Shown here: positions 17,400 through 50,563 of the stretch, one piece after another
Position numbering within the stretch: the stretch's first letter is position 1
How the letters are laid out: every line of letters begins with the position of its first letter
Assembly: GCA_018715625.1 (NCBI GenBank)
Contig: DVLG01000054.1
Location: 4,160 to 68,159 of the forward strand
DNA length: 64,000 nucleotides
Direction of reading: 5' to 3'
Source of the DNA: Candidatus Scatovivens faecipullorum
Lineage (GTDB): Bacteria > Bacillota > Clostridia > TANB77 > CAG-508
Made by a program: the position numbers and the translations under genes
Notes under the pieces: generated by a model
What the model saw: the letters and a program-made list of their open reading frames with translations, nothing else
Databases searched by the model: none
Told to the model about the DNA's origin: nothing

Positions 17400-17564
17400 A
17401 TACAACTTCCTTAATATAAATCTACTATTTTATTTTATTATACTTTATATAAATAATCAATAGAAAAATAAACCTTAAGCTAGTATCTAAATAAATACAT
17501 TGCACAGTATTTATTTGAATACATGATAAAATTATGTTAAATAATATTATAAGAGGTATCAAAA

Positions 17565-17792
17565 ATGTATTTAAAACGTTTAAAAGATTTAAGAGAAGAT
17601 CATGACTTATCTCAAGAATATATTTCAAAAATATTAAAAATTACCAGACCACAATATAGTTTATATGAAACAGGTAAACGTGATATTCCAGTTGATTTAT
17701 TAAGTGTTTTAGCTAAATTTTACGATACAAGCATTGATTATATTGTTGGAATCACTAATGTTTCAAAAAGGTATCCAGAAACAAAAAAATAA
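17565..17792 (+). CDS. XRE-family helix-turn-helix transcriptional regulator
   Basis: 75 aa with LSQEYISKILKITRPQYSLYETGKRDIP, a typical Cro/CI HTH. Confidence 0.8.
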   Translation: MYLKRLKDLREDHDLSQEYISKILKITRPQYSLYETGKRDIPVDLLSVLAKFYDTSIDYIVGITNVSKRYPETKK

Positions 17793-17828
17793 ATTTTACA
17801 AAAGTATTTAATTAATTTCTTAAATTAT

Positions 17829-17868
17829 AAAGTATTACATTAAGTTTAATGTAATACTTTATTTGTTT
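17829..17868 (+). terminator. Rho-independent terminator after the first XRE gene
   Basis: 14-bp stem AAAGTATTACATTA / TAATGTAATACTTT followed by a T-rich tract. Confidence 0.65.
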
Positions 17869-17977
17869 AGATTTTTTTATTTTTTTACTAACTCAAAATC
17901 CTATAAAAAAATACCTTATTGTCAAATCTCTTTTAAATAGATATAATTTAATTATTAGATTTAAAAGGGGTTTTTTT

Positions 17978-18199
17978 ATGTTATACAATCGTTTAAAAAA
18001 ATTAAGAAAAGAAAATAATTTAACACAAAAAGATATCTCTAAAATATTAGAAATATCTCAAAGCTTATATTCGCTTTATGAATCTGGTAAAAAAAATATT
18101 CCAATAACAATTTTTTCAAAATTAGCAAAAAAGTATAATACAAGTATTGATTTTCTAATCGGTGATACAGATACAAAAACACCATTTATAGAAAATTAA
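17978..18199 (+). CDS. XRE-family helix-turn-helix transcriptional regulator (paralog of 17565..17792)
   Basis: 73 aa with LTQKDISKILEISQSLYSLYESGKKNIP. By eye it is about half identical to the upstream XRE. Confidence 0.8.
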   Translation: MLYNRLKKLRKENNLTQKDISKILEISQSLYSLYESGKKNIPITIFSKLAKKYNTSIDFLIGDTDTKTPFIEN

Positions 18200-31673: not shown

Positions 31674-31871
31674 CTATCTCTCTTCTCTTTCAGAACTATC
31701 TTTTTCTTTTTTCGCAGTTGTTTTTTTAATTGGTTGTACAGAAGCATAATCACTTTTTTTATCTCCTGTAAATCCTGCATCAAAATCATATCTTCTTGGT
31801 TGTGGTTTATTTGATTTAACATCTGATTTTGTTTTTCTAAAAATTTCAAATAAATCTAATAATAACCCCAT
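31674..31871 (-). CDS. Small hypothetical protein, 65 aa, homologous to the C-terminal tail of the 1077 aa protein
   Basis: LLLDLFEIFRKTKSDVKSNKPQPRRYDFDAGFTGDKKSDY aligns with ALLVDDIYENARKTKTNVRRTKPQPRNYDYEAGYVGKKQPDY. Weak GGGAAAG RBS. Confidence 0.45.
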   Translation of the reverse strand: MGLLLDLFEIFRKTKSDVKSNKPQPRRYDFDAGFTGDKKSDYASVQPIKKTTAKKEKDSSEREER

Positions 31872-34900: not shown

Positions 34901-35164
34901 ATTGATTTGATTTACTTTTTCTTCAATTTCCTTTCTTTTCTGTTTTAGTTTTGCTAATTTTTCTTCTCTTTCAGAATCATCTTTAGCTGCTTCTTCCTCT
35001 TTAATTAAATCATTAAATTGGATTTCTAATATATTTAGAGCAGTAATTGGGCTTTTATCTCCTAAATCTTGATTTTGTATTTCTTCATATTTTGAAATTC
35101 TATCTTCAATTATCTCTTTTTTGACCCCATATTTAAATACTTCTTTTTCCTTTGGATCAGCCAT
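31931..35164 (-). CDS. Hypothetical giant protein, 1077 aa: coiled-coil-like N-terminal third and a likely globular C-terminal part
   Basis: Long ORF with an AGGAGG RBS, an E/K/L-rich heptad-like N-terminus and an internal 57-aa duplication. No signal peptide. Confidence 0.6.
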   Translation of the reverse strand: MADPKEKEVFKYGVKKEIIEDRISKYEEIQNQDLGDKSPITALNILEIQFNDLIKEEEAAKDDSEREEKLAKLKQKRKEIEEKVNQINQENKEVLKANDVIEELEDLLKTSKEEYSFVEIEEIEKRIEEYKKMLFNLDSSALGKRKSELEALIAKQKEELEKLKENAAKKDDKTSVEPGKEYLDSATEKAKKDLEDKIANREAMIAGRGNELNPARYEELAEWKKQLADLNSGKITDEIREAAINGEIKDLEDKIANREAIIAGRGNELNPARYEELKAWKERLSALLNSQGPKELTEDDKKIAELEKSIAENEKELEEVNKSLEELEKRNIVDLTNQKRVIENRIEELEDLAKEKSLFKINEKGEVEIKYPDMPVEIDEQAIADEYMARRTDMLDKYYGNKEKSAEYKEKMQEFKSHIVEKEFEFVDKDGKRQTGVYSTVEPYEGMEDDLAFLQLEEYADRLERLTKYEAGDISAYSKFKNPEAVAERDKSYIETNNSAYNRLVTTQKNLMTLGKYGEKVPYSKMQEGQTVRNILRAVGNAGRFIRNHTTAPINKFIGSKIVAPIYGAVTGVNKGNVAGLYSNKFTHRYVARREYFASQGKGYFASRFNSIFKAKEGNKAILSAGAHDIKESIKTKYTDQAIKAARQKQIEFAGKSIEEQMEMLKEDLDKTTDPQAKAKLENTLEILKKAEAQIKLDKEKADNMKIRQTIQTDAVDMDQHDKANKENVTRTVTGIKMLTRFGIKKFVGPKIKQWLVEHTQKQVTVPEQYQEPVQSEKWVETTYKEQTVPVYGTKADHSSTTLEDIMSSNAGKQVEGYYSVYGGETRPKMYDLTGNEKITAVFQGVGNKGTGLSDTAGLTAPTLTDRAFDASFLGTNGVLKQDVTVEQIINAIGADKVNPDTLSDLYVSVGDKCWVKLTDLYDGLTKTQIGTEVKKVIDVPGHMEKVTEMVTKTRDVTKMVENTRVTSVLDKLGIAYDVGASALLVDDIYENARKTKTNVRRTKPQPRNYDYEAGYVGKKQPDYEADLEVVEIKDGVLRGGNIIKDDIETKTDKKDKTPEKNKQDKKQKEDRDDEER
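34335..34591 (-). repeat. Tandem duplication, 171-bp period, inside the 1077 aa gene
   Basis: DLEDKIANREA(M/I)IAGRGNELNPARYEEL encoded twice, at about 34335-34420 and 34502-34591. Confidence 0.8.
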
Positions 35165-35203: not shown

Positions 35204-37201
35204 TTACTCTCTTTCTTCACCTTTTTCTTCTTTTGATTTTTTTGCATTCTCATCTTTTCCTTTTTCACCTTTTTCTGGTATAGGAGTTTTATCTTGTTTT
35301 TGGAATGGATCTTTTTGATCTTTTGGTTCTTTTGCTTTTGCTTCGTCTATTTCTTCATCATGATATATATATATACCATCTTCCTTAATACTTAAATTTC
35401 CAGTTGATAGATAATTAATTGCTTCTTTCTTATATTTTCTACTAGGCAAAAAGAATCTTAATTTTTGTAATAATGGTATAGGCTCATTATCTTCTAATTC
35501 ATTTTTTAATGCCCATGCTTCTGCTTTTAATGCAGCTTTTTGGAAAAATCCAGCATTTTCATATTCTCTTCTTCCATTTATTATTAATTTATTTTTACCA
35601 TCTTTACCATTATTATCGTCTTTGCCATCATTACCATCTTTACCGTCATTTTCATCTTTACCGTCATTTTCATCTTTACCGTCATTATCATCTTTGCCAT
35701 CATTTTCGTCTTTACCGTCATTTTCGTCTTTACCGTCATTTTCGTCTTTACCGTCATTTTCATCTTTGCCGTCATTTTCGTCTTTGCCGTCATTGTCATC
35801 TTTGCCGTCATTGTCATCTTTGCCAGGATTATCGTTTTCTGCTTTTTTATCTTTTCTTGAAATTATATCATTAATTTCTTTTGTAGCATCTTCTAATTCT
35901 TGTGCTATCAAAGCTTTTTGTTCATCACATAAATCTATTGCAGCTTGAATATCATTTAATTGATCTTTTAATGCTTCATACGTTTCATTTAATTTTTTTA
36001 CTTCTCCACCATTTGTTATTATTCTTGTGCCTTCTTGATATTCATATTTAAAATCTTTTAACTGTATTAAAATACCTTGCATTTCATATTTTACTTTTTC
36101 TACTTCTGAATTTAACCTTGCTTTTTCTTGTGTAAAATATTTGGATTTTTCATCTCTCAAATCACTTGCTTTCATTTTTGTTTCTGGAGATTTCTTTTCT
36201 TCCTCAACTTTTTCTTGTCTCTCTTCTAGTTCTTTAACTCTTTTTTCTGCTTCTGCAATTACTTCTTTTAATTCGCTTTTTGCTCTAATTGCTTCGACAT
36301 AATCCATATCTCTTGTATCTAAGTTTTCTAATTCTTCTTTATATTTTTCTACTCTAAGTTTTGCAGCTCTTAGTTCATTATTTTCTAAAGAAATAGAACT
36401 TCTTAAGTCAACTGCTTTTGATTCTAATTTTTGATACTCTGCATTTCCTTCTTTTTTTCCTTCATCTTCCATTTTATGCATTTCTAATTCTGTTTTTTTC
36501 AAATCTGCTTCTAATTCTTCAACTCCAGCAAAATGTGCTGATTCTACTTTTTTAGCAAATTCTGTATCCTTATCTGGACCATCAGAATTAAGATGTGGTT
36601 TTATTCCATCTACTTTATGTTGGATATCTGCTTTTTTAGCTTCAAATTCCTCAATCTTTCTTTTTATTTTATCAACTTCACTCATAATTTTACTTCCTTT
36701 CTCACTTTTTTTATTATTATCATTTTTTTGATTTTCTTTATCTTTCTTCTTTTTGCTACTATTTTCTTTGTCACTACTTTCTTTTTCAGTATTTTCTTTA
36801 CTAGTGCTATCTTTTTTAGACTTTTTTTCTCCAGTATCTTTTTTACTTTTCTGTTCTAGTCCTTTTATGTATTTTTCTAATACATTAATTACTGATTTAC
36901 AATAATCTATATCTTCTTTTGAAAGATCATTTTTCAAAATAAATTCTTCTAGGTTTGATTTTGATCTTTCAGCTTTTTCTCTCCCGCCAAGAACTTGTAT
37001 AGCATTCTGCTTATTTGAAAATCTTAAATTAGCTCCTCCCTTAATCATATAAGTTACTTGCATAATTTCATTGGCTTCATATCTTCCAAATTTGCTTACT
37101 GCTTTAGAAATCTCTCTTTCAGATTTCTTATCTAACTTTTTTTCAGAAATAAGTTTAACTAGTTTAATCATATCTTCAAAAGACATATTTTTTTGCGACA
37201 T
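35204..37201 (-). CDS. Hypothetical protein, 665 aa, coiled-coil-like with an acidic GKDEND repeat tract
   Basis: Long ORF with a GGAGG RBS and its own promoter. K/E-rich. About 13 tandem hexapeptide repeats. Confidence 0.6.
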   Translation of the reverse strand: MSQKNMSFEDMIKLVKLISEKKLDKKSEREISKAVSKFGRYEANEIMQVTYMIKGGANLRFSNKQNAIQVLGGREKAERSKSNLEEFILKNDLSKEDIDYCKSVINVLEKYIKGLEQKSKKDTGEKKSKKDSTSKENTEKESSDKENSSKKKKDKENQKNDNNKKSEKGSKIMSEVDKIKRKIEEFEAKKADIQHKVDGIKPHLNSDGPDKDTEFAKKVESAHFAGVEELEADLKKTELEMHKMEDEGKKEGNAEYQKLESKAVDLRSSISLENNELRAAKLRVEKYKEELENLDTRDMDYVEAIRAKSELKEVIAEAEKRVKELEERQEKVEEEKKSPETKMKASDLRDEKSKYFTQEKARLNSEVEKVKYEMQGILIQLKDFKYEYQEGTRIITNGGEVKKLNETYEALKDQLNDIQAAIDLCDEQKALIAQELEDATKEINDIISRKDKKAENDNPGKDDNDGKDDNDGKDENDGKDENDGKDENDGKDENDGKDENDGKDDNDGKDENDGKDENDGKDGNDGKDDNNGKDGKNKLIINGRREYENAGFFQKAALKAEAWALKNELEDNEPIPLLQKLRFFLPSRKYKKEAINYLSTGNLSIKEDGIYIYHDEEIDEAKAKEPKDQKDPFQKQDKTPIPEKGEKGKDENAKKSKEEKGEERE
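35596..35830 (-). repeat. 18-bp tandem repeat, about 13 copies, encoding (N/D)DGKD(E/D)
   Basis: The plus strand reads ccgtcattttcatcttta and close variants, head to tail. The repeat also produces three artefactual ORFs in other frames. Confidence 0.9.
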
Positions 37202-37313: not shown

Positions 37314-38762
37314 TTATTTTTTGTCAATTAATTCATTACTTAAAATATTCATAGATCTTTCAGCCAATTTACTATATCTTATTTTCTTATCTTTAATCTT
37401 TTCTTCTAATTGTGGTAGTATTCCAAAATTAGCATTCATTGGTTGAAATTTATCATTTTTAGTAGATATATATTCGGATAAAGCTCCTATCACCGTCTCC
37501 TTTGGAAAAGTAATTTTTTCTTTTTCATAAAGATTATCTATTTTTTCTTTATAATTTATGTAAACTTTTTTATCTATATTGTATTTTACATTAGTTTCTT
37601 TTTTTATATTGTTAAATATATTATACATTTTTACAGCATTAATTCCAGCAACAAACCCTGATGAGATTGATTCAACATAACCTTCTACTCCTGTTATTTG
37701 GCCTGCAAAAAATATTCTTCTATCACTTTTTAAATTATACGTATTATCTAAAACTAATGTAGAATTTATATATGTATTTCTATGCATAACTCCATATTTA
37801 ACAAAATTTGCTTTTTCTAAACCTGGAATTAAAGAAAATACCCTTTTTTGCTCTCCATATTTTAAATTAGTTTGAAAGCCTACTATATTATATAAATTTC
37901 CTTCTTGGTTGTCTTGTCTTAGTTGCACTACTGCATAAGGCCTTTTTCCTGCTTTAGGATCTGTAAATCCTACTGGTTTTAAAGGTCCATATCTTAATGT
38001 ATCTATGCCTCTTTTTGCCATAATCTCAATCGGCATACAACCTTCAAATATTTCTCTTTTTTCAAATTCATGTAAGGTTACTACTTCAGAATTTATCAGC
38101 TCATTATAAAATTTCTCATATTCTTCTTTATTCATAGGAAGATTTATATAGCTTCCTTTTATATCTTTTATTCTTTCCAACCAAACATCATAATCTTCAT
38201 CTTTTTCTCTTTCTTGAACATACCTATCACCAAAAAATCCTATATTCATATCTATAGAATCTTTTTCAACTATTGGTGCAGCAGCATCATAGAAAAATAA
38301 TTTATCATTTCCTGTTAAATCAGAGATTTTTTTTGATAGACTTTCAGAAGTAAGTGGACCAGTTGCTATTATAACCACACTATCTTTTGGAATTTCTTTT
38401 ACTTCTTCTCTTACAACTTCTATATATTCATTTTCTTCAATTCTAGCAGTAACTAATTTTGCAAATTTTTCTCTATCTACTGCTAAAGCTTGTCCTGCTG
38501 GAACTTGCACACTATCTGCTACAGAAATTAATTCACTACCTAATCTTCTCAGCTCTTCCTTTAATAAGCCACATGCATTGGTCAAAAGATTTGATTTAAA
38601 AGAATTACTACATACGATTTCAGCCAAATCTTTATTAGAATGTGCCTCTGAAAATTTTATAGGCTTCATTTCATAAAGCTTTACTCTTATTTTTCTTTTT
38701 GCAATTTGCAAAGCTGCTTCTGAACCTGCAAGTCCACCACCTATTACTATAATTTCTTTCAT
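37314..38762 (-). CDS. trmFO: Methylenetetrahydrofolate--tRNA-(uracil-5-)-methyltransferase TrmFO
   Basis: N-terminal FAD motif [19 protein letters not shown] and full-length TrmFO/Gid-like sequence. At 482 aa it appears to carry a K/N-rich insertion near the C-terminus. Confidence 0.88.
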
Positions 38763-38793
38763 AATATATTTGTGATTTTCTCCCTTTTTTTAT

Positions 38794-41790
38794 TTACATT
38801 GTTATATCTTCATATTCTTCAGTTTTTCCTTCTTGATTTTTTTGTCCTTGTTTTTCTCCAGTTACTGTTTGGCTTTGTGACTGTTCTTGAATTTTTCCAG
38901 ATATTCCTTCAACTCTATATTTGTCAAAAGCAGATTCTTGAACTTTTTTAGGATTTTGTCCATTTATTTCATTCTTTTCTTCATTTTTTTCTTCAGGATT
39001 TTTTCCTGCAAATAAATCTTTAAATTTTTTAAATGCATCTCTAGCATTATTCTTTAATTCATTAATTGCTTTTTTAAATCTGCCAAAAATAGAATTATCT
39101 TGTGGTACTAAACTCTTTTCTTCTGTTAAATCTTGAAAATCTCTATTATCTGTACTAAGTTCTTCTGTTTTTAAGGTTGATTGTTTTCCAGATTCCTTTT
39201 TTTCACTTTCATTTGTTTCTTCTGCTTCTTTCTGATTGATTAAATCATCTAATCTTTCTTTGTTTTTTTTCTCCTTAAAACTTATTATCTCACTAAGCTT
39301 TTCATCATCAGAATTTGATTTTAATGCTCCAAAATCAGAATCTTTTAGTTTAGAATATTCTGTCATCTTTCCAACAAAATATACTTTTTGATATTTATCA
39401 TAAAGATTTTTTCCTATTTCATCTAAATTATTTTCTCTTAATCTATTTACTGTAGTATAATTTTTGTATTCTGACAATAGTACATCTTCGTTTACAATTC
39501 CATTTCCATTTTCATCAAATTCTATAAATTTATTTTCCTCTGTATTCATTATTTCTAATGCTCTATTAGATAATTTTAAAAGCATTTGGCTTTCCTCTGG
39601 AGTATCAGCACTTTTAGCTAGCTCTCTTGAAAGTATAGTTATTCTTAAATATTCAAATCTGTCTTGCTTATCTAAATGATAATAATCTGGATTCAAAGTT
39701 AATACATTCTTTTGATAAAAATCCAATACTTTTGCATTTAATTTATCTTTTTCGAATCTTCTCTCTTGTTCTTTTAGCTCTTGTAACTGTTCCGGAGTAT
39801 ATTCAGAAATTTTTTTTGCCAATTCTGGATTCTCTCTTTGCATTTTAGCTAACATATTTTGGCATATTTTATATTTTGTTTGACCATTCGCTATTTCTTC
39901 TTCAGATAATTTATCTTCTAAAAGTAATATTGCCATATATCTATGAAAAAACACTTCCTCTTTTGTACTTATCCAAGAACCTATACTAGATTTTTTATAT
40001 AATTCCATATATGTTTTTTCATCACTCTCAGTAAACTCCATATTAGATTTTTTGTTAAATGCATTTTGTAATTCACTTGCACTATAATCTACTTCTAATA
40101 TTTCACTTCTAATATTAAACATTTGATCCATTTCATGATCTTGTATCTTTGCTTTAGAATCAATTACCTTACCTAATCCCATATCAATAAATTTTCTTTG
40201 TATAGAATAAAATTTATCTTCACATGAATTACTACTATATTCCCCATCTGAAGGAATTTTTAGTACTTCATTAATAACATCTTCAAGAGCTTTACTATTT
40301 TTGTTAAATTCTATTTCTGGATGCAATTTTTTTAGTACAACTTTAGATTTTTCAACAACTTCTTTATTTTTTGAAGATAATCCTACTAAAAAAGATGCTG
40401 TATAATTTCTTAACATATCTTCAGATATTATCTCTTTTTTTTCACAATTTTCTCCTATTAGTTCATACAGTTGGGAAATATCTTTAGCAACTATTTTATC
40501 TTTTAAATTATTGATATAACCTTTTAATGTTTCTTTTCCTTGTTTTGTTATATTTCCATTTTCATCTTTCAAATCTTGTGTAAAATATCTAAGTTCTGGA
40601 TTTTTTTCATAAATTGCTTTTCTTTTATCTAATAAACTGATATACGCTGGACTTAATTTATCCATCACCATAAGTTTTGATTCAATTGCAAACATTTTAT
40701 TTTTTAAGCTATCTATATATTTATTAATATCCTCTTGACCTTTTTCAGTTAATTTTCCATTGTCATCTCTTAATTCATCAAAAATTTTTCTTAATTCAGG
40801 ATTTTTGTTATAAATCTCACTTCTTTGTTTTAATAATTGTTCATATCTGTTAGAAGACTTATCTGTAAGAATTATTTTAGTTTCAATGCTAAGTATTATT
40901 TTTTTATTGTCTATTTCCTTTTTCATATTATTTTTGGCTTCTTCAGTAACAGTCTTCAGAGTCGCAAATATTTCCGGAATATTATTAGAATCAATTGTTC
41001 TTTTTGTTATTATACTTAACAGTTCTGCAAGAGCTTTATTACTACTTTCACCTTCTGGTATTTTATCCGCAAATATTTCACGAATTTTCTTATATGCCAT
41101 TTCTCTGTGTTCTTCTTTACCATTAACAATAATTTCTAATAGTGGAAGACATTTCTTAGCTTTTTCTTCATCTAACTCTTTTTGCCAATCTATTTCATCT
41201 AAACCACCTAAAATATTTTCTCTATAATCATCCAAATCATTTTCCAAATCATTATTTGAATTGTCAAATAGTTGTATACCAGCAGTATAATCAATCATAC
41301 CTCTATTTTCGCTTCTTTCTAAAAAGTCTTTTGGTAAAATCTCATCTGCCATCATCTCTCTTAATATTTTTTTACCTATTTCTTGATTTTTAGTATAATA
41401 TTCATTACTTTCAATTCCTACCCTAACTGCTTGTCTATAACTTGCTTCTGGATCTTTTTCTCCTGTTTTAGGGTCTATAACTATACCATTTGGTAATTTA
41501 TTTATATATCTAACCAAGTTTATATAAACATTTTTTAAAGTATCCATAGCACTATCTCTAGTTTCTACTGAACTAGTTAAGTTTTCATATAAATTAGCTA
41601 TCATTACATCTGTAATACCATACTGATTAAGTTTTCTTAAATTAACTATAACAGGACTATTAGACCTTGCTAGAATATCATATACATCTATGACTTTTCC
41701 ATCAAGACCATTATCAGCAATAAGATTATCTCTATCTTTTGTTTTATCTATTCTTTTTTTTCTATCTTCTCTTTCTTCTTTAGTTGCCAT
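38794..41790 (-). CDS. Hypothetical giant helical protein, 998 aa (paralog of the 1277 aa protein)
   Basis: Long ORF. It ends 31 nt upstream of trmFO with no terminator between them. Internal repeats around NPELR...D.NG.(L/I)T..G. Several blocks align with the 1277 aa protein. Confidence 0.6.
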   Translation of the reverse strand: MATKEEREDRKKRIDKTKDRDNLIADNGLDGKVIDVYDILARSNSPVIVNLRKLNQYGITDVMIANLYENLTSSVETRDSAMDTLKNVYINLVRYINKLPNGIVIDPKTGEKDPEASYRQAVRVGIESNEYYTKNQEIGKKILREMMADEILPKDFLERSENRGMIDYTAGIQLFDNSNNDLENDLDDYRENILGGLDEIDWQKELDEEKAKKCLPLLEIIVNGKEEHREMAYKKIREIFADKIPEGESSNKALAELLSIITKRTIDSNNIPEIFATLKTVTEEAKNNMKKEIDNKKIILSIETKIILTDKSSNRYEQLLKQRSEIYNKNPELRKIFDELRDDNGKLTEKGQEDINKYIDSLKNKMFAIESKLMVMDKLSPAYISLLDKRKAIYEKNPELRYFTQDLKDENGNITKQGKETLKGYINNLKDKIVAKDISQLYELIGENCEKKEIISEDMLRNYTASFLVGLSSKNKEVVEKSKVVLKKLHPEIEFNKNSKALEDVINEVLKIPSDGEYSSNSCEDKFYSIQRKFIDMGLGKVIDSKAKIQDHEMDQMFNIRSEILEVDYSASELQNAFNKKSNMEFTESDEKTYMELYKKSSIGSWISTKEEVFFHRYMAILLLEDKLSEEEIANGQTKYKICQNMLAKMQRENPELAKKISEYTPEQLQELKEQERRFEKDKLNAKVLDFYQKNVLTLNPDYYHLDKQDRFEYLRITILSRELAKSADTPEESQMLLKLSNRALEIMNTEENKFIEFDENGNGIVNEDVLLSEYKNYTTVNRLRENNLDEIGKNLYDKYQKVYFVGKMTEYSKLKDSDFGALKSNSDDEKLSEIISFKEKKNKERLDDLINQKEAEETNESEKKESGKQSTLKTEELSTDNRDFQDLTEEKSLVPQDNSIFGRFKKAINELKNNARDAFKKFKDLFAGKNPEEKNEEKNEINGQNPKKVQESAFDKYRVEGISGKIQEQSQSQTVTGEKQGQKNQEGKTEEYEDITM

Positions 41791-41823
41791 AATACTCCCA
41801 CCATAAAATACTTTATTAATTTT

Positions 41824-41852
41824 ATTATAGATTTTGTCGTTTTAATTTACAA
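41824..41852 (-). promoter_or_regulatory. Sigma-A promoter for the 998 aa gene and trmFO
   Basis: Minus-strand TTGTAA, 17 nt, TATAAT. Confidence 0.5.
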
Positions 41853-41882
41853 TAACAAAAATATTACATTTTATCCATAAAA

Positions 41883-41910
41883 AAAAGAGTTCCTTTCAAA
41901 CTCTTTTTTC
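41883..41910 (-). terminator. Rho-independent terminator after the 1277 aa gene
   Basis: Stem AAAAGAGTT / AACTCTTTT followed by a U-run on the minus-strand transcript. Confidence 0.6.
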
Positions 41911-41945
41911 CCTAAAAGTTTACAACTTTTTTCTAATTTTTAAAA

Positions 41946-44900
41946 TTATTCAACAGTAAGTTCCGCCTCTTGATTTGCTGTTTTTTCTGAAGACTTATGC
42001 AATTCATTTATTGCTCTTTGATGATTTAAACCTTCTACTTTTATTCTCTCATCAAAAGTATTTTGAATTTCTTTATATTCAATTTGTGACTTTCTAATAC
42101 TATCACTAACTTTATTTTCATTTTCAAATTTTTCTCTTTTTAAAAATATATTTTTTACTCCATTTACTAATTTACCTAAAACTCCTGTTTTTCTATTAAT
42201 CAAAGCATTTCCATCTGTTAATTTTTTAGTTTTTATTCTTTTTATGGTATCCTTTACTCTTTCCATAAATCCTGTTTTCCTATATTTTTTTTCATTTATT
42301 ACACTAAAATTTATTTCCTCTATTTTTAGTGACGAATTACTTTCTGCATTATTTTCTTTAAACTCTGATTCAGGTGGTATCTTTTCTCTCTTAGTTTCAT
42401 CTTCATTACTTCTTTCAATTTGATTTGAGTTTCTATTAGTATTATGCTTATTTCTACTTGAAGTTTCTAATAATTCAGTTATTCTCCCAACTTTTCTTTT
42501 TTCAATTTCTAATAATTTTTTTATCCTATTTTCCTCATTTAAAGGAGTAAAATATTTTTCATCTAATCTACTAAAACTATATAGCTGAGAAGGTACATAA
42601 AAATTCTCATGTCTTTTAGCTACTAAATTTCTAGCTTCTTCATAACTCGTACATTGTTTTTTATAAAAAGCTACTGAATTGATCTCTTCAAGAATACTAT
42701 TTTCATTTATAACTCGTTTTCCATTTACATCAAAACTAATAAAATTTTTTTCTTTAGAATTCATTAATTCTAAAGTTCTGTCACTAAGCTTTTGAATTAA
42801 TGCTTTATGATCAGGATTTTCAATAGTTTCTGCAAATTTACTAGCAAACATTGCATATCTTAAAACATTTTTTTTATCAGAAACTATAAGTTTACTATAA
42901 TTTTCAGCTTTTACTAAAATATCCTTTTGAAAGTTTTCTAATAAATCAGACACTAATTTATTTTTTCCAAATGTCTTTGCCTCAGATACTATTTTATTTG
43001 CAAATTCTTCATCATTTTCAAATTTTTCCTTGAAATCTGGATTTTCTCTTAATAATCTATTCAACCTTTTAAAATATTTTTGATTTGATCTTTGAGATTC
43101 CGGACTTTTTTCATTATTTTCAGACAAAAATTTTTTCAAATAAATTATCTCATATCTTGTTACATTTGATTTATCAGATATCCAAGAATTAACTGTAGTA
43201 TCACAGTATAACTCTTTAAATATAGTCTCGTCTTTCTCTGAAAAATCTATTACTGACCCTTTAAATCTATTTTTTATTTCACTTTTCGTTAAATCTGTTT
43301 CTGTAGTTTTTATGGGAACAGCAATTCTTTCAAAAAAATCTTCTGTTTCTTTATCATTAATTTTTAATTTATTTAAATCTATTATATCTTTTTCATTTAA
43401 AATCTTTCTAATTAGGTTTCTTTTTATTTCTCTATTTTTCTTATAAAAGTCATCGCTTATACTATTTCCATAAACAACATGGTACATTTTTTCTTTTAAT
43501 TGTTCATAATCATTTATTTTTGAAAAACCTTGAAACATCTTTTTGAACTTCTCTATCGAATTTATTCTAATTTCTGGATCATCATTCTCAATTCCTAAAA
43601 TCAATATACTAGTAAAATTTTTTCTCTCTTCTGTATCTAATCCTTCTACATTAGTTGCATTTATATTATATTTTATCGTTTCATTTAACAAATTATTTAC
43701 ATATGATTTTAATTCAGTAACACCTTGTCCTGTTAACTCTCCATATATATTTCTAAAGTCTTTAACTAATTGTGAACTTTCTGGATATTGAGTTAAATAT
43801 TCTTTCATAATTGCTAAATTATTTTCATAATCAGCTGTTCCTTTTGAATATTCAATTTTAGCCTGTAAAAGTAAAATATTTTCTCTTTCTGCTTCTTCTA
43901 TTGTAATACTCTTCATGCTTTGAGGAATCAATCTAACGTTAATATCATTTTTTAATTCTTTATCTAAAATGTCATTTATTCTATCTGAATGATAGCTTTT
44001 TAACTTACTTATTAATGCTTCATCTAAAGCTCCTAAATTCATTTTTTCTAATATATCCACAATTGTGCTTTCGTCTTCAAATGTTAATTTATCTGCATTT
44101 ATTTCACTAAGTTTTTCTATGAACTTTTGAGATTTTTCTTTTATTCTTCCAATTTCTTTCTTTTTACTATCTAATTCTCCTTTCATAATAATAGTATTTC
44201 TTTTAACACTTTCAGGTAGTAGATTTCTTTGTAATATCTGTTGAATTCTAGTTATACTAACAGAACCATCTTTGTTAAAAATTCCTTCTGTATCTATATT
44301 TTTAAAGTATTCTTCAAAATATTCTCTATACTGTAAAATATATGTATCCATATATTGCTTTATATCATCTTTTTTCCCGCCTTCTCGATAATATATGTTA
44401 TATAAATTTATAATCTCTAACCCCTTATAATCGTGAATTCCATCACTTTTTCGATTATAATTTTCTGTTAAAATTTTAAATATTTCTTTTTCTTTCAAAG
44501 ATCTATGTATATTATCTACTGAAAGTAAATTTGTATTTAAACAATAACTTTTATTTTCATTTTCTGGATTCTCTAGATTTTGTAATATTCTCATAAATTT
44601 TATGTGACAAGTATTTGAATTAAATTCATGAGATGAAACAAATTTATTAAAATCTTCTTCATTGTTTATCTTTATTCCTAAAGTAGTATATATATAATTC
44701 CATAGGGTTCCTTTATCTAAATTAGACATATTTAATTTCTCAAGTAGAAAATCTCTTTGATTTTTAATTATTTTACTACTTGAGTGAATTTCTGCTTTGC
44801 TTAATGCTAAAATAATTTTTTCTTTAATTATAGGATTTAATTTGTCAAAATCTATATCTTTTTCTTTTTCCTTTTCTCTTTCTAAAGCTACTAATATATT

Positions 44901-45779
44901 ACCTAAATCTGAATATGTATCAGCTAAATTCTTTTTTTCTTCCCATTCTTTTTTAAATTTAATTATACTTTCTTGTGTAATTTCTCCATTTTCATCAACT
45001 AAAAATCTAGCATATTTATTTAACGGATCTTTAAACAATTCTTTTATTTGATTTAAAGCATCTTCAAGTTTATTTGAGTTCGAATCTCTTTGGTACATAT
45101 CAACATAATTATAAATTGATTTAATAAAATCTAAATCTAGTTTTTTTGTAATATTAATATATTTAAGCAATTTTTCTATATCTTTTTTTTCGTTATCATT
45201 CATATTTAGATTATTTTGCATATCACTAAAATCTTCATCTGTTGGTTCTCTATAATTATTCGTATGTGAAACTATGTCTTCAAAACTATAATTTATATCT
45301 TCATTATATTTTATTAAGTTACTCTTTTCAGAATATGCTATAACATTAATAATTTCATCTATCATTTTTGTTTTTTCTGAAATAGGTTTCTTTTCAAAAC
45401 CTTCATATTCTATACCAAAATCTTCGCATTTTTGTATACTTAATTCTATATCTTTTTCACCATTATCAATATCTAATACTATTCCAATGTTTGGATCCGA
45501 ATTTATCTTATTTACAAATATATCAAAAACTTTTTCTAGTTCTTCTATAATTTCATCTACATTTTTTCCTTGTGTGTTTCCTATCATCTCATATACAGTT
45601 TTTATTTGCTCTAAACTAACACCATACTTTATTAAATTATTAATTTTATTAGAAATTTTTAAATTACTTTCTAAAATATCATCAATATCAATAAAGCTTT
45701 TAGAACTTTGATCATAACTTAGTGTATTTTTATCCTTATTTGCTATTCCAGCAGTTTTTTCTAATCTTTCATTCTCCAT
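41946..45779 (-). CDS. Hypothetical giant helical protein, 1277 aa (paralog of the 998 aa protein)
   Basis: Long ORF, K/E/N/I-rich, with no signal peptide or TM. Shares SWIS, L(E)(I/L)MN..E.NFI.FD.NG and N-terminal blocks with the 998 aa protein. Confidence 0.6.
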   Translation of the reverse strand: MENERLEKTAGIANKDKNTLSYDQSSKSFIDIDDILESNLKISNKINNLIKYGVSLEQIKTVYEMIGNTQGKNVDEIIEELEKVFDIFVNKINSDPNIGIVLDIDNGEKDIELSIQKCEDFGIEYEGFEKKPISEKTKMIDEIINVIAYSEKSNLIKYNEDINYSFEDIVSHTNNYREPTDEDFSDMQNNLNMNDNEKKDIEKLLKYINITKKLDLDFIKSIYNYVDMYQRDSNSNKLEDALNQIKELFKDPLNKYARFLVDENGEITQESIIKFKKEWEEKKNLADTYSDLGNILVALEREKEKEKDIDFDKLNPIIKEKIILALSKAEIHSSSKIIKNQRDFLLEKLNMSNLDKGTLWNYIYTTLGIKINNEEDFNKFVSSHEFNSNTCHIKFMRILQNLENPENENKSYCLNTNLLSVDNIHRSLKEKEIFKILTENYNRKSDGIHDYKGLEIINLYNIYYREGGKKDDIKQYMDTYILQYREYFEEYFKNIDTEGIFNKDGSVSITRIQQILQRNLLPESVKRNTIIMKGELDSKKKEIGRIKEKSQKFIEKLSEINADKLTFEDESTIVDILEKMNLGALDEALISKLKSYHSDRINDILDKELKNDINVRLIPQSMKSITIEEAERENILLLQAKIEYSKGTADYENNLAIMKEYLTQYPESSQLVKDFRNIYGELTGQGVTELKSYVNNLLNETIKYNINATNVEGLDTEERKNFTSILILGIENDDPEIRINSIEKFKKMFQGFSKINDYEQLKEKMYHVVYGNSISDDFYKKNREIKRNLIRKILNEKDIIDLNKLKINDKETEDFFERIAVPIKTTETDLTKSEIKNRFKGSVIDFSEKDETIFKELYCDTTVNSWISDKSNVTRYEIIYLKKFLSENNEKSPESQRSNQKYFKRLNRLLRENPDFKEKFENDEEFANKIVSEAKTFGKNKLVSDLLENFQKDILVKAENYSKLIVSDKKNVLRYAMFASKFAETIENPDHKALIQKLSDRTLELMNSKEKNFISFDVNGKRVINENSILEEINSVAFYKKQCTSYEEARNLVAKRHENFYVPSQLYSFSRLDEKYFTPLNEENRIKKLLEIEKRKVGRITELLETSSRNKHNTNRNSNQIERSNEDETKREKIPPESEFKENNAESNSSLKIEEINFSVINEKKYRKTGFMERVKDTIKRIKTKKLTDGNALINRKTGVLGKLVNGVKNIFLKREKFENENKVSDSIRKSQIEYKEIQNTFDERIKVEGLNHQRAINELHKSSEKTANQEAELTVE

Positions 45780-45825: not shown

Positions 45826-45854
45826 ATTATAAATTTAGCTAATTTATAATTCAA
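45826..45854 (-). promoter_or_regulatory. Putative sigma-A promoter for the 1277 aa gene
   Basis: Minus-strand TTGAAT, 17 nt, TATAAT. Confidence 0.4.
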
Positions 45855-45959
45855 TTACATATGTATTACAAATGTCAAATTTTAAAAATGAAAAATTGAT
45901 GTAATGTTATGTATTCATATAAGTACATAATATTACATTTATAAAACTCTTTTTTGTAT

Positions 45960-46005
45960 AAAAAAAGCTTAAAGAGTTGAATTTTACTAATTAACTCTTT
46001 AAGCC
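45960..46005 (-). terminator. Rho-independent terminator after topA
   Basis: 12-bp stem GCTTAAAGAGTT / AACTCTTTAAGC followed by TTTTTT on the transcript. Confidence 0.7.
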
Positions 46006-46015: not shown

Positions 46016-48115
46016 TTATTTTTTCTTTGCTGATGTTTTTTTAGCACTTTTCTTTTTAGTTGTTTTTGTTTTTCTTGCTACTTTTTTCTTTTCTTTTTCT
46101 ATTTCTTCAAGATCTTCCTCACTTGCAGGTTCAAATTTTTCTCCTAATTTTGGTTTATTCCAAGATATATATGTGCAGCCTTCATTTTCACCTTTATTAT
46201 TTTCACAAATATAATAATTACGTCTTTTTTTAGTTTTTCTAACTTGAACTACACCACCGCAAACTGGACAAGGAACATCGATAGTTTCTATTATAGGTTT
46301 TGCATTTTGACACTCTGGATACCCTGGACAAGCTAAAAATTTTCCATATCTACCATATTTTATAACCATCATTCTTCCACATTTTTCACATGGTACATCT
46401 GAAACTTCATATTCTAGTTTTACATGTTCTAATTCTTTCTCAACTTTTTCCACAATTTGTTCAAAAGGTGTGTAAAACTCACTAATTACTTTTTTCCACT
46501 TTTCTGTTCCTTCTGCAACTTTGTCAAACTCCTCTTCCATTTTGGCTGTAAATTCTACATTTATTATATCTCCAAAATTTTCTATTAACAATTTGTTCAC
46601 GATTTTACCTAAATCTGTAGGAATTAATTGTTTTTGAACTTTTTCTATATATCTTCTTATTAATATTGTTGTTATCGTAGGAGCATAAGTACTTGGTCTT
46701 CCAATCCCTTTTTCTTCTAAAGTTTTTACCAAAGTTGCTTCAGTATATCTTGCTGGTGGTTCAGTAAAACTTTGTTTTGATTCTAATTCTTCTTTTTTTA
46801 CTTCTTCTCCTACTTCTAATTCAGGAATCTTTTCAAATTCTTCTTTCTCTTCATTTTCAACATAAAGAGACATATAACCTTTAAACTTCATAGTTTGACC
46901 ATTTGCTCTAAAATTATAATCATTAGCATCTATTGCAACTGTTACTGTATCATATATTGCTGCTGCCATTTGACTTGCCATAAATCTATTATAAATTAAT
47001 TTATATAATTTATATTGGTCAGAAGTTAAACTATCTTTTATTAGATCTGGTGTAAGTTCTATGTGAGATGGTCTTATTGCTTCATGTGCATCCTGAGCAT
47101 CAGACTTTGTTCTATAAAATCTATTTTCATAAAAGTTCTCACCGTAAGTTTTTACTATATATTCTTTTGCAGCTTCTCTTGCTTCATTAGAAATTCTTGT
47201 AGAATCTGTTCTCATATAAGTAATTAAACCAGTTGATCCATATTCAGGCAATTTTACACCTTCATATAAACCTTGTGCTACAGACATTGTTTTTTTAATT
47301 GCAAAATTTAATTTTCTTGAAGCATCCTGCTGTAGAGTACTAGTTGTAAATGGTGGTGCTGGATTTCTTTTTCTTTCACCTTTTTTTACATCTACCACCT
47401 TATATTTAGCTCTTTCTAAATCTTTTAATATGCTATCAACTTCATCTTTAGAATGAAGTTCTATTTTTTTACCAGATTTTCCAATAAATTTACAATTAAA
47501 AATTGTTTTAGTTTTCTTATCAGAAGCTTTTAAATTTATATTCCAATATTCCTCTGGAATAAATTTCTCTATTTCTTCTTCTCTTTCAACTATTAATCTT
47601 ACAGCCACTGATTGTACTCTACCTGCAGATAATCCTCTTTTCACTTTCTTCCATAATACCGGACTAATTTTATAACCAACAATTCTATCAAGTACACGTC
47701 TTGCTTGTTGAGCATCTGTTAGATTTAAATCTATTTTTCTTGGATTATTTATCCCCTTTTTAACTGCATCTTTAGTTATTTCATTAAAAGTAACTCTACA
47801 AGTACTATTTTCATCTATTCCTAAAATATATGCTAAATGCCATGCTATTGCCTCTCCTTCACGATCAGGGTCAGTTGCAAGATAAACTTTTTTAGCATTT
47901 TTAGCATCTTTTTTTAAAGAATTTATCAATTTTGCCTTTCCTCTGATGTTTATATATTCAGGTTCAAAATTATTCTCAATATTTATTCCTAATTTTGATT
48001 TAGGTAAATCTCTAATATGTCCCATTGATGCTACTACTTTGCTTTTGTTACCTAAATATTTTTTAATTGTGTTCGCCTTTGCTGGTGATTCCACAATAAC
48101 TAATTTATCAACCAT
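46016..48115 (-). CDS. topA: DNA topoisomerase I
   Basis: Toprim LVIVESPAKA, DPDREGE, the active-site region YMRTDS, C-terminal C4 zinc fingers (CEKCG...CPGYPEC, CPVCGG...C) and a lysine-rich tail. Confidence 0.93.
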   Translation of the reverse strand: MVDKLVIVESPAKANTIKKYLGNKSKVVASMGHIRDLPKSKLGINIENNFEPEYINIRGKAKLINSLKKDAKNAKKVYLATDPDREGEAIAWHLAYILGIDENSTCRVTFNEITKDAVKKGINNPRKIDLNLTDAQQARRVLDRIVGYKISPVLWKKVKRGLSAGRVQSVAVRLIVEREEEIEKFIPEEYWNINLKASDKKTKTIFNCKFIGKSGKKIELHSKDEVDSILKDLERAKYKVVDVKKGERKRNPAPPFTTSTLQQDASRKLNFAIKKTMSVAQGLYEGVKLPEYGSTGLITYMRTDSTRISNEAREAAKEYIVKTYGENFYENRFYRTKSDAQDAHEAIRPSHIELTPDLIKDSLTSDQYKLYKLIYNRFMASQMAAAIYDTVTVAIDANDYNFRANGQTMKFKGYMSLYVENEEKEEFEKIPELEVGEEVKKEELESKQSFTEPPARYTEATLVKTLEEKGIGRPSTYAPTITTILIRRYIEKVQKQLIPTDLGKIVNKLLIENFGDIINVEFTAKMEEEFDKVAEGTEKWKKVISEFYTPFEQIVEKVEKELEHVKLEYEVSDVPCEKCGRMMVIKYGRYGKFLACPGYPECQNAKPIIETIDVPCPVCGGVVQVRKTKKRRNYYICENNKGENEGCTYISWNKPKLGEKFEPASEEDLEEIEKEKKKVARKTKTTKKKSAKKTSAKKK

Positions 48116-48198: not shown

Positions 48199-49446
48199 TT
48201 ATTTCTCTCCAAAATCTTCTGCTTGACTATTTCTAGAATCTTTATTAGTTTTATCAAATAAATTATCAACAAAATCTCCTAATTGTTCTTCTAAATGATG
48301 ATTTTTTGCGAAGTTATTCAAAATATCTCTAATATTATGTCTATCACTTTTACTAAGTTCTTGTAATAAGGTTTTAGCTTTTTCTAAATCGTTATTTTCC
48401 ATACTTTTATTAACTATTTTAAATAATTCCATTTCTTTTTTTCTTGAATTTTTTTTAAATATAAAAAGTTTATTTCTTTCATCATCATTTTTGCAATTAT
48501 TCCACTTATATTTAAATTTCTTGTCTTTTGATAATTCTTGCAATTGTGCTTTTGTAGCTCTTTTTTGAGCTTCTTCTACTTCTTGTATAAATTCATCTTT
48601 TGTAGAAAACCTTTTTGCTAATCTTGCATCACTAGATACAGAGTCTTTAAAACGCTCATAAACTTTATCTAAATCTATAGTTCCATCTGGTGCTATAAAT
48701 TCACTTAGTCCATTTCTAGCTGCATATAAACATGCATCCTCCTTTAGAATCGAATTATTAGAAGTTGCTTTTCTTGCTAAAATAAACAAAACTCCTCTTA
48801 TTGATTTATTATCTGGGTTAGCTTTATAGTGTTTTTCACACCCCTCTCCAATTTCCTTGTCAGCAAAATATTTAGCTGCTGCTTCTTTTTCTGTTTCTGT
48901 TCCATTAATCATATCATTTATACTTTGGTTTCTCTGATCTTGTACTTTTTTAGTATTTTCAAAGATATTTGATAGTTCACTTATTTTTTCCAGAGATAAA
49001 GTCCCATTACGTAACATTTCCATTATATTTGAAGTTAAAACATTTCCACTAATTTTATTACTATAAGTCTTCTCCATGACAACACTTAATTCTTCTCTAT
49101 AATTCAATTCATTTGTCACTATTGGCTCTACAACTGCTGATGTTAAAAATTCTTTATCATTTATTTGTGTTATTGATTCAAGATTTCCACTTTCTAAATG
49201 TTGTTCAATTACATTCAATATATCTGTTCTTGTATTTTGGGTAGGAATAAAATTTGGTTTTTGAATAAGAACAGCATATGTAGCTTCTATTTGTTGCTTA
49301 ATTATTTCTTTATTAATATCACTTCTATATAAAATTTTTATTAACATATCTTGATTATCTTTATCTTCTTTTTCAACATAATTACAATCTTTTTTTGCTA
49401 ATTCATAAGCTAAATCACCAATTCTACTCTCAAAATTATCACTCAT
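48199..49446 (-). CDS. Hypothetical protein, 415 aa, translationally coupled to murG
   Basis: The ATG lies 1 nt after the murG stop codon. No signal peptide or TM. No recognisable family. Confidence 0.5.
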   Translation of the reverse strand: MSDNFESRIGDLAYELAKKDCNYVEKEDKDNQDMLIKILYRSDINKEIIKQQIEATYAVLIQKPNFIPTQNTRTDILNVIEQHLESGNLESITQINDKEFLTSAVVEPIVTNELNYREELSVVMEKTYSNKISGNVLTSNIMEMLRNGTLSLEKISELSNIFENTKKVQDQRNQSINDMINGTETEKEAAAKYFADKEIGEGCEKHYKANPDNKSIRGVLFILARKATSNNSILKEDACLYAARNGLSEFIAPDGTIDLDKVYERFKDSVSSDARLAKRFSTKDEFIQEVEEAQKRATKAQLQELSKDKKFKYKWNNCKNDDERNKLFIFKKNSRKKEMELFKIVNKSMENNDLEKAKTLLQELSKSDRHNIRDILNNFAKNHHLEEQLGDFVDNLFDKTNKDSRNSQAEDFGEK

Positions 49447-49447
49447 T

Positions 49448-50563
49448 TTATTTTACTACCTCTTTTATCTCTTGATAAATCTTTTCTTCTACATTTGAAG
49501 GAGCTATTGTATTTGCTATTTTTCCCATCTCTTCTAGTTCAAGGTTATCTAAAATAATATCATCAATTTCTTCTGATAACTTCTGACCTGTAACATCTTT
49601 ATTTAGTATTATCTTAGCTGCTCCAATCTTCTTTAAAACAAGTGCATTATCTTCTTGTCTATTAGCAGACATAGAAGGTAGTGGGATAAATATAGCTGGC
49701 TTCCCAACTATAGAAATTTCGGTAATTGTCATTGCTCCACTTCTGCAAACTAACAAATCAGAAATATTCATCATTTCTTCCATATTGTATATATATGGCA
49801 ATATTTTTACATTTTTTATACTATTTATATATATTTCATCTTTTTCAAAATTTTCTTTTACAATATCATATTGTTTTGGCCCTGTTGCCCAAATTATCTG
49901 ATATTTATCATTTCTCTTCAATTTTATTAATTCTGCAACTGCTTCATTAATTTTTTGAGCCCCTTGACTTCCACCAAATACTAAAACTATTGGCAGATTA
50001 TTTCTTATTCCTATTTCTTCCAATATTTCTTTTTTTCTTATTTTTGAAATATTTAATTTTCTTATTTTAGTAGGTGTGCCCGTAACCACTACACTTTTAC
50101 AACCTTCTAATCTACTTTTAGTTTCTTCAAATCCTACTAAAACTTTATCTACTTTTTTGGAAAACATTTTTACAGCTTTTCCGGGATAAGCATTACTTTC
50201 ATGTAATACTGTTGGTATTTTTTGAGAAGTTGCTACTTCAAATACAGGTCCACATATATATCCACCTGTTCCCAAAACTAAATCAGGTTTAAACTCTTCA
50301 AATATTTTCTTTACATCTTTTATACTAAAAATAGTTTTTAATATATGTTTTAAATTTTGTATAGAAAATTCTTTTTTAAATCCATATACATCTATTGTCT
50401 TTAATTTATAACCAGCTCTTGGTACTAAATCAATCTCTAAACCTCTATTAGTACCTATAAAAATTATTTCTGAATCTGGTTCTTTTTCCTTTATTTTATT
50501 AGCTATTGCAATTCCTGGATTTATATGCCCTCCAGTTCCTGCTGCTGAAATTATAACTTTCAT
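49448..50563 (-). CDS. murG: UDP-N-acetylglucosamine--N-acetylmuramyl-(pentapeptide) pyrophosphoryl-undecaprenol GlcNAc transferase
   Basis: AGTGGHINPG N-terminal motif and GGSQGA. 371 aa. Confidence 0.9.
   Translation of the reverse strand: MKVIISAAGTGGHINPGIAIANKIKEKEPDSEIIFIGTNRGLEIDLVPRAGYKLKTIDVYGFKKEFSIQNLKHILKTIFSIKDVKKIFEEFKPDLVLGTGGYICGPVFEVATSQKIPTVLHESNAYPGKAVKMFSKKVDKVLVGFEETKSRLEGCKSVVVTGTPTKIRKLNISKIRKKEILEEIGIRNNLPIVLVFGGSQGAQKINEAVAELIKLKRNDKYQIIWATGPKQYDIVKENFEKDEIYINSIKNVKILPYIYNMEEMMNISDLLVCRSGAMTITEISIVGKPAIFIPLPSMSANRQEDNALVLKKIGAAKIILNKDVTGQKLSEEIDDIILDNLELEEMGKIANTIAPSNVEEKIYQEIKEVVK

Follow-up and report, generated by a model that had tools for sequence, protein, structure and literature searches.

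Two giant paralogous genes, which we call big1 and big2, occupy the interval between topA and trmFO in a stretch of DNA from Candidatus Scatovivens faecipullorum, a member of an uncultured, very AT-rich gut lineage; the whole stretch of 64,000 nucleotides is referred to here as the window. The genes of this locus lie on the minus strand, in the order murG (49448..50563), an orphan of 415 amino acids (aa), topA (46016..48115; TIGR01051, E=1.4e-239), which forms the upstream boundary of the locus, big1 (41946..45779; 1277 aa), big2 (38794..41790; 998 aa) and trmFO (37314..38762; NF003739, E=6.2e-190), the downstream gene of a probable operon. Orphans of 665 and 1077 aa come after trmFO, also on the minus strand. 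Both big1 and big2 are intact open reading frames (ORFs). About 9% of random codons are stops at 25% GC, so ORFs of 1000-1300 codons are not accidental at this composition; a base-composition calculation puts the chance of a 1277-codon ORF at ~1e-51. The first-pass annotation, made from the letters alone, had described the genes as native in composition with no mobile-element genes nearby, and this agrees with a GC content of 0.21-0.25 over big1 and big2 against 0.25-0.29 in the surroundings and with the lack of any integrase or transposase among the window ORFs scanned. A family hidden Markov model (HMM) matches only big1 and big2 in the window, without further family copies or silent donor cassettes. 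No kinship of the two proteins with the neighbouring 415-, 665- and 1077-aa orphans was detected.

The paralogy of big1 and big2, which had been proposed from three blocks aligned by eye, is confirmed by pairwise BLASTP. Their C-terminal halves match at E=6e-35 (27% identity over 492 aa) and their N-terminal ~180 aa at E=2e-8, and all three blocks fall inside these alignments. The internal repeat reported for the 998-aa protein is equally real: residues 306-368 and 373-435 of big2 are 44% identical over 63 aa (E=2e-18). The two proteins are acidic, K/E-rich and all-alpha in composition, and both N-termini are highly charged. Neither protein has a signal peptide or a transmembrane (TM) helix by a simple hydropathy test rather than a dedicated predictor (highest 19-residue Kyte-Doolittle mean 0.84-0.88), which supports the earlier statement to that effect on hydropathy grounds. 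The first ~20 residues are predicted to be disordered, yet they are strongly conserved.

From the family alignment and module HMMs, with a consensus of the N-terminal domain (NTD) drawn over 68 dereplicated sequences, a four-part architecture was derived. The NTD of ~105 aa carries the signature YGIT..., PNGIVID..TG..D...S. Next comes a variable helical region, 310-715 aa long, which holds zero to three copies of a ~63-aa helix-hairpin-helix module (REP) and sometimes partial matches to the C-terminal domain (CTD). The CTD itself, of ~280 aa, is present in one to three copies and has the signature SWI..K, K.a.RrLE, fi.fd.ng...in...il.Ey; the invariant residues named in it are S582, S605-W606-I607, K739, R743 and E746. 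In close relatives of big1 and big2 the protein ends in a disordered K/E/N/Q-rich tail. By HMM scan, big1 consists of an NTD (residues 17-122), a long variable helical region with a single REP module (residues 581-641; 43857..44039), a CTD that aligns with that of big2 (residues 826-1104; 42468..43304) and a tail (residues 1161-1277). In big2 the same scan places the NTD at residues 20-125 (41416..41733), two tandem REP copies at residues 305-372 and 372-434 (40489..40878; NPELR...DxNGxLT...YI..LK), the CTD at residues 567-849 (39244..40092) and the tail at residues 890-992.

AlphaFold2, run on full-length big2 with the family alignment, returned an all-alpha model with a mean pLDDT of 65.5, in which the CTD reaches 80-93 and the last 140 residues are disordered except for one helix. 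The big2 CTD modelled alone is confident (pLDDT 88.5, pTM 0.84). Predicted helices are at most ~40 residues long and are bundled and joined by short beta-hairpins, the DxNG hairpins linking helical modules, and the model contains no long coiled-coil rods. The single helix predicted in the otherwise disordered tail (858-998) is amphipathic and cationic (residues 901-927; 39010..39090): at 0.67 its hydrophobic moment exceeds that of any other part of the protein (mean 0.26), its net charge is +4, and its motif is conserved across the family. By hydropathy and these models big1 and big2 are soluble, all-alpha and modular proteins.

The first-pass annotation recognised no known family, and the wider searches agree. 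Pfam, NCBIfam and PADLOC gave no family for either protein (PADLOC 0 families at E<=0.1), PHROGs gave none for big2 and one weak match of unknown function for big1 that is not significant (E=0.011), and Pfam found no domain in 14 of the most divergent family members. When PDB sequences were compared with a profile of 19 members, no chain was found at E<=1. Foldseek with the full big2 model returned non-significant solenoid matches only (CRM1, importin-beta, SF3B1), with TM <0.11 and a best E of 3.5e-3. The CTD model had no match in the PDB, where the best candidate, the CdvB2 ESCRT-III filament (E=0.12, TM 0.23/0.33), is regarded as a generic helical resemblance between model and structure, and none among the viral predicted structures of BFVD (best E=0.66). 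Searches of phage and plasmid records (tblastn with big2) and of IMG/VR were likewise empty. A phage or mobile-element origin was therefore rejected, there being no PHROGs, BFVD, IMG/VR, phage or plasmid match, a native composition and no adjacent integrase or transposase.

Individual families were considered as well. Large soluble all-alpha proteins built of repeated helical modules are also found among HEAT, ARM and TPR solenoids and in the spectrin-like EzrA, but the modules of big1 and big2 would be ~280-aa bundles with beta-hairpin knuckles rather than two- or three-helix repeats, Pfam detects no HEAT, ARM or TPR family in either protein, and the Foldseek values just given hold for these solenoids. 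A calcium-binding (dockerin or EF-hand) reading of the DxNGxI motif was discarded, as the paralogs lack conservation at loop positions 5, 6 and 12 and no HMM matches; the same Pfam scan detects a dockerin in another window protein and none in big1 or big2. No defining feature of any family considered was found, and both the family and its predicted fold appear to lie outside known kinds.

The main finding concerns how these genes vary. Between the window and its sister species (locus L007), the housekeeping genes are well conserved: protein identity is 95% for murG, 95% for topA and 90% for trmFO, with ratios of nonsynonymous to synonymous divergence (dN/dS) of 0.06, 0.06 and 0.10, and across the housekeeping neighbours dN/dS ranges from 0.06 to 0.19. 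In the same comparison big1 is only 52% identical (dN/dS 0.48) and big2 57% (dN/dS 0.43). Within the species the two genes part company. In same-species contigs whose big1 is 100% identical and whose topA and trmFO reach at least 98.8% protein identity, the big2 proteins are 998, 961 or 1118 aa long and only 45-69% identical overall. The change is abrupt. Nucleotide identity of the window to L002, L004 and L090 is 97-100% up to position ~41,460 and then falls to 33-51%; in the 961/963-aa alleles it recovers to 89-100% at ~40,030, and in the 1118-aa allele it does so at ~39,115. In the protein the breakpoints lie at residues 106-114, 586 and 892, which are the borders between NTD and variable region, variable region and CTD, and CTD and tail. 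The segment they enclose is a hypervariable cassette (residues ~107-586; 40032..41473), which contains both REP copies and in one allele type extends to nucleotide 39115 (residue ~892).

Comparison of individual alleles shows the same mosaic. Against protein P0006, the window protein is 98% identical in the NTD, 29% in the variable region, 96% in the CTD and 99% in the tail; against P0015 the corresponding values are 98%, 23%, 26% and 83%. P0015 and P0016 form the reverse mosaic (NTD 65%, variable region 95%, CTD 99%, tail 99%), from which it follows that cassettes move between backgrounds. The NTD is 98-99% identical among alleles that are wholly different downstream of it. At least three allele types, 23-29% identical in the variable region, occur in one species, and their clusters hold ~22, 54 and 28 sequences (database clusters, not a population sample), which suggests that none of the three is rare. 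Because synonymous divergence (dS) is 0.3-0.6 in the cassette, far above the 0.004-0.05 of the flanks, the alleles are better explained as old lineages exchanged by recombination than as recent mutational bursts. Constraint differs along the protein: the CTD has a dN/dS of 0.09-0.18 and the variable region one of 0.5-0.8, with 0.6-0.8 for the hypervariable cassette, and within the 963-aa allele group the proportion of variable sites is 15.7% in the variable region and 17.4% in the tail, compared with 1.8% in the NTD and 3.9% in the CTD. At the level of sequence comparison, then, the central array of big2 is evidently a cassette swapped by homologous recombination, with crossovers in the conserved NTD, CTD or tail; cassettes are evidently shared across lineages, and the NTD and CTD are evidently under purifying selection. 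To judge from the alignments, such a pattern of polymorphism is typical of diversifying or balancing selection and not of housekeeping scaffolds. Mosaic alleles with conserved ends are a known phenomenon, for example in surface antigens and specificity subunits. What is new here, as far as alignments and models can tell, is the exchange of allelic cassettes in big2 and an orphan family with a predicted new fold.

These rates bear directly on the role first suggested for the pair, namely that of a structural, scaffold or cytoskeletal protein family. In its fuller form this explanation holds that big1 and big2 are an intracellular scaffold, possibly tethered to the membrane and linked to division or the nucleoid, whose centre is a spacer that drifts neutrally and recombines. 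The proteins are indeed large, soluble and all-alpha, the locus adjoins a division and cell-wall cluster as well as topA, the family is fixed in its clade, and dN/dS in the variable region stays below 1. The amphipathic helix of the big2 tail resembles the membrane-targeting helices of MinD and FtsA. However, the short bundled helices of the model form none of the long coiled-coil rods that a cytoskeletal element might show, and by Pfam and NCBIfam neither protein has an SMC, DivIVA, EzrA or intermediate-filament-like domain. A spacer needing constant length and fold also sits badly with three alleles at 23-29% identity in one species and with cassettes shared across lineages, and the 52-57% identity to the sister species contrasts with the values for topA (95%) and trmFO (90%). 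The absence of rods, the fast evolution relative to the neighbours and the three divergent big2 alleles thus count against the structural role as first proposed, and we consider a scaffold rather unlikely, although it keeps a real share of our expectation.

The family is narrowly distributed. Word-indexed searches with big1 returned four clusters and those with big2 19, each of them metagenomic and without a name, and a word-indexed profile search added no further sequences. When 1.84 billion representative proteins were searched exhaustively with an HMM, only 119 relatives emerged at E<=0.001 (83 at E<=1e-30), of which the full-length members are ~730-1770 aa long and the remainder shorter fragments. 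All 119 are unnamed and come from gut metagenomes or metagenome-assembled genomes (MAGs) of one low-GC Clostridia clade, which bears out the earlier suggestion that the family is lineage-specific. The closest species representative is the uncultured human-gut Clostridiales MAG MGYG-HGUT-04073, with a trmFO 90% identical to that of the window; rabbit and mouse gut MAGs are further carriers, and the clade recurs in human, mouse, rabbit and ruminant gut metagenomes. Only three of the 80 species representatives fetched around trmFO carry the family. The sequence data support the view that it is lineage-specific and native to the chromosome.

Every member with recoverable context sits in the topA-trmFO interval (L007-L010, L011, L013, L090-L102), in arrangements that differ in copy number and gene structure. 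L098 and L100 have a single family gene of 1101-1767 aa, the window, L010, L094, L097 and L101 have two, and L011 and L013 have a 1433-1482-aa gene with two or three CTDs. In L102 the NTD and CTD lie on separate adjacent genes, which indicates that the modules work together. The interval between murG and topA forms a second variable slot. In the window it holds the 415-aa orphan (48199..49446), in L007 an unrelated 609-aa orphan, in L013 a 554-aa protein, and in L011 a 906-aa member of the big1/big2 family.

It is important to note that topA and trmFO are seldom neighbours in this clade. That they are split by two giant genes is true of the window, as first reported, but for this clade the premise that they are normally adjacent has to be qualified. 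Among 19 related representatives with both genes within 10 kb, the two are adjacent in only three (L014, L015 and L081, with gaps of 244-858 bp). In at least seven of the other representatives, six of them with Pfam confirmation, trmFO is directly preceded by a full-length SNF2 helicase of ~1000-1180 aa. It has the domains SWIM, SNF2_assoc, SNF2-rel_dom and Helicase_C, often stands between topA and trmFO, and is found in the majority of the remaining sister lineages. In most of L016-L089 the helicase appears to be co-transcribed with trmFO; L017 has instead an unrelated 961-aa orphan upstream of trmFO, and L079 a papain-like protease with Big_3 domains plus the helicase. Since the interval is filled in most of the clade, most frequently by an SNF2 helicase unrelated to the family, it is, on present comparisons, a recurrent landing or birth site, and splitting of the pair is common.

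The helicase raises the question of descent, in which big1 and big2 would be extremely diverged remnants of an SNF2 helicase from the same slot. Family and helicase stand at the same place and in the same orientation, cover the same range of sizes and are both tightly coupled to trmFO. Beyond this the likeness ends: hhalign of the family against the SNF2-helicase alignment gives a probability of 0.2%, so that no sequence or profile similarity links them, Pfam finds no SNF2 ATPase or Helicase_C domain in big1 or big2, and the proteins lack helicase motifs and a RecA-like alpha/beta domain, being predicted all-alpha. SNF2-helicase descent is effectively refuted by the hhalign result and the missing helicase domains, and we give it next to no credence.

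A quite different possibility is export. In the manner of flagellin-type, type VII-type or lysis-dependent systems, big1 and big2 might be surface or assembly subunits that reach the outside by a dedicated route independent of signal peptides, assembling or docking through their conserved ends while the variable centre faces host antibodies or phages. Conserved ends, a hypervariable centre, breakpoints at the borders, and tandem paralogs with their own promoters make up the classical pattern of flagellins and surface antigens. Flagellin-type antigens such as FliC and FlaA/FlaB share this layout with big1 and big2, share with big2 the recombination of intraspecies alleles at the borders between conserved and variable parts, and likewise lack a signal peptide. 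Fixation at a core locus in all clade members is as expected of a structural surface component, the first ~20 residues, disordered in prediction yet strongly conserved, fit this reading, and the habitat is the mammalian gut. On the other hand, hydropathy gives no signal peptide or TM helix, and Pfam gives no cell-wall-anchoring domain. Flagellin_N (PF00669) and Flagellin_C (PF00700) are absent from both proteins at Pfam E<=0.1, no flagellin is among the Foldseek matches, no flagellar gene is present among the window ORFs scanned, and big1 and big2 are 2-4 times larger than typical flagellins, with export itself putative. A type VII route fares no better: Pfam and NCBIfam detect no WXG100 or LXG domain in either protein, the locus has no EssC-type FtsK/SpoIIIE ATPase and no downstream immunity gene (the neighbours being topA, trmFO and orphans), and no secretion-system gene was seen among the window ORFs scanned. 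The acidic, K/E-rich, all-alpha composition also speaks against export, though it does not discriminate alone. We regard export as unlikely, slightly more so than an intracellular scaffold.

The regulatory signals at the locus were read from the sequence and compared among relatives. Immediately after the topA stop lies a terminator-like hairpin with a T-run (45960..46004), which is identical in L090, while L010 and L094 keep only a T-rich stretch there; a consensus scan missed it because its stem is AT-rich. Upstream of the big1 promoter is a 15-bp inverted repeat (ATGTAATATTATGTA / TACATAACATTACAT; 45899..45938) that is kept in L090, L010 and L094 despite changes on both arms. The big1 promoter-like element (TTGAAT-17-TATAAT; 45826..45854) has both hexamers invariant in four taxa. 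After the big1 stop comes another terminator-like hairpin and T-run (41879..41912), whose stem and T-run are invariant in the four taxa while the loop varies. The regulatory region of big2 (41795..41870), which comprises a AATGTAATAT element, the promoter-like TTGTAA-17-TATAAT (41824..41852; both hexamers again invariant in four taxa) and the ribosome-binding site GGTGGGAG, is almost wholly invariant in the same four-taxon comparison. The big1 and big2 proteins of these four taxa share 40-57% identity. In such AT-rich DNA a promoter consensus scan alone performs at chance, with 82 sites found and 77 expected. The claim that each gene has a canonical -35/-10 element therefore stands on the invariance of the hexamers across taxa and not on the scan, which by itself is uninformative.

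Between the big2 stop and the trmFO start there are 31 nt without a hairpin (38763..38793), and at all related loci the distance from the stop of the family gene to trmFO is 12-35 nt. The earlier statement that no terminator precedes trmFO is upheld, and big2 is probably co-transcribed with it, as the spacing suggests. Exact copies of the AATGTAATAT element number only three in the window, namely the two promoter copies and one intragenic site, and one of them falls inside the 15-bp inverted repeat. With 33 one-mismatch sites against 33 expected, the element is not enriched, and the idea of a regulon marked by it was dropped; the shared element may instead be a promoter duplicated along with the gene. 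An inverted pair of AATGTAATAC at 17832..17857, in the intergenic region 17405..18196, resembles the AATGTAATAT element upstream of big1 and big2.

Promoter type also bears on the idea that big1 and big2 are proteins of the spore coat or exosporium, produced by the mother cell. Such an origin would explain the missing signal peptide, and it would fit rapid, lineage-specific evolution and the neighbouring orphans with low-complexity repeats. The conserved promoters, however, match the vegetative sigma-A consensus (TTGTAA-17-TATAAT) and not the consensus of sigma-E or sigma-K; moreover, big2 is apparently co-transcribed with housekeeping trmFO, and no sporulation gene was identified in the window. 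A spore-coat role is accordingly very unlikely.

We tentatively favour a reading in which big1 and big2 are polymorphic recognition or adaptor proteins that act in a biological conflict with swappable specificity, and we hold it as a possibility well short of even chances. The conserved ends would dock the protein to invariant cellular partners or serve assembly, and the tail helix is a candidate for docking at the inner face of the membrane. The central array would form an exposed surface for binding, with diversifying or frequency-dependent selection acting on its specificity. For an intracellular protein the likeliest opponent would be a phage or other mobile element, because no export signal was found. 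Each gene would be expressed from its own sigma-A-type promoter, with big2 read through into trmFO. Comparable designs exist among polymorphic specificity genes kept by balancing selection: in the type I restriction subunit HsdS, in polymorphic LXG toxins and in the middle repeat region of Helicobacter pylori CagY, in which, as in big2, a conserved framework carries swappable divergent specificity segments and several alleles coexist in one species. The two proteins themselves show no homology to any of these, and no partner methylase, immunity gene or secretion system lies nearby; in addition, it is the centre that varies in big2 and the C-terminal toxin domain that varies in LXG proteins.

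Several points weigh against recognition by swappable specificity. The analysis identified neither a binding partner nor an enzymatic motif or effector domain for big1 or big2. Known defence genes are usually sporadic and located in variable islands, whereas this family has no PADLOC-DB model and is fixed between topA and trmFO wherever sampled; a clade-wide core locus fits better with a core cellular component. In the variable region dN/dS stays below 1. Imported divergent DNA, together with relaxed constraint, could account for the pattern with no positive selection needed. The frequencies of the allele types are sizes of database clusters and do not represent a population sample. An amphipathic helix followed by ~70 further residues differs from a classical C-terminal membrane-targeting sequence, and the absence of a signal peptide, judged from hydropathy only, is compatible with a dedicated export route. 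A broader formulation is that the topA-trmFO interval is a polymorphic 'identity' locus, encoding giant proteins of a new fold with a recombination-shuffled specificity cassette under frequency-dependent selection, for recognition of phages or mobile elements or for interaction with a host or partner, without an enzymatic effector and without relatives outside the clade. This formulation is somewhat more doubtful than the recognition or adaptor reading itself.

The family offers an entry point into the protein dark matter of such genomes, as it combines a confident domain without a fold relative, a fixed address and a bounded cassette, in a lineage in which about a third of a 64-kb core-genome window is without family assignment. 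The cassette marks where selection acts and is usable as a strain-typing marker. If phage sensitivity or host recognition depends on it, an abundant gut lineage would possess a specificity system of a new kind; otherwise the family still illustrates clearly how giant genes can rapidly arise, duplicate, fuse and split at a single slot.

Other genes near the locus are also variable. The 1077-aa orphan (31931..35164, minus strand) is 99% identical in protein, with a dS of 0.017, to its counterpart at 16597..19854 of L007, while the dS of topA and trmFO between the same two species is 0.43-0.52, far above that of the orphan; the comparison suggests a very recent transfer or sweep across the species boundary. 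Just downstream, a 65-aa ORF (31674..31871, minus strand), which is also called at the same position in L007 and L008, repeats the C-terminal motif of the 1077-aa protein (KPQPRRYDFDAGFTGDKKSDY vs KPQPRNYDYEAGYVGKKQPDY). The 665-aa orphan (35204..37201, minus strand) contains ~14 tandem DGKDEN/DGKDDN hexapeptide repeats that give rise to spurious collagen-like and tail-fibre matches, and its length varies by strain (665, 671 and 701 aa); gene calling in L090 merges the 665-aa and 1077-aa genes into one of 1777 aa. TrmFO itself carries a K/N-rich insertion at residues ~381-425, outside the family models, which is length-polymorphic: the protein has 482 aa in the window, 512 aa in L090 and 452-467 aa in more distant relatives.

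A 446-aa orphan (30289..31629, minus strand) is without a family match. Its K/R-rich N-terminus precedes a single clear hydrophobic helix, GLAASLLAGSLALAGHIGG, and the protein is probably bitopic in the membrane; the motif RDY(R/K)Q(L/I)AYELLP marks an internal duplication within it. The orphan's position next to rpsL is kept in related contigs, with 444 aa in L007 and L008, and a 430-aa gene of L100 is a possible counterpart. In the window as a whole, 42 ORFs reach 150 aa or more, and 14 of these are without a match in the libraries used for them, a single library in some cases. The 14 amount to ~22.6 kb or 35% of the window, and between them lie core genes for DNA repair as well as those of the ribosomal str operon and of the division and cell-wall cluster. 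The window contains neither rRNA nor tRNA genes. The usual order of the division and cell-wall cluster is broken in this genome: FtsQ-like and MurA-like genes (518..2680, minus strand) lie ~47 kb from murG instead of right after it, and neither ftsA nor ftsZ was found within the 64-kb window. The window contains, besides topA, a second type IA topoisomerase (2744..4645, minus strand; 633 aa) with Toprim and Topoisom_bac domains and without zinc ribbons. Finally, a papain-family cysteine protease with a lectin-like domain and a type I dockerin is encoded at 5775..7985 (minus strand), which hints at cohesin-dockerin surface assemblies in this organism.

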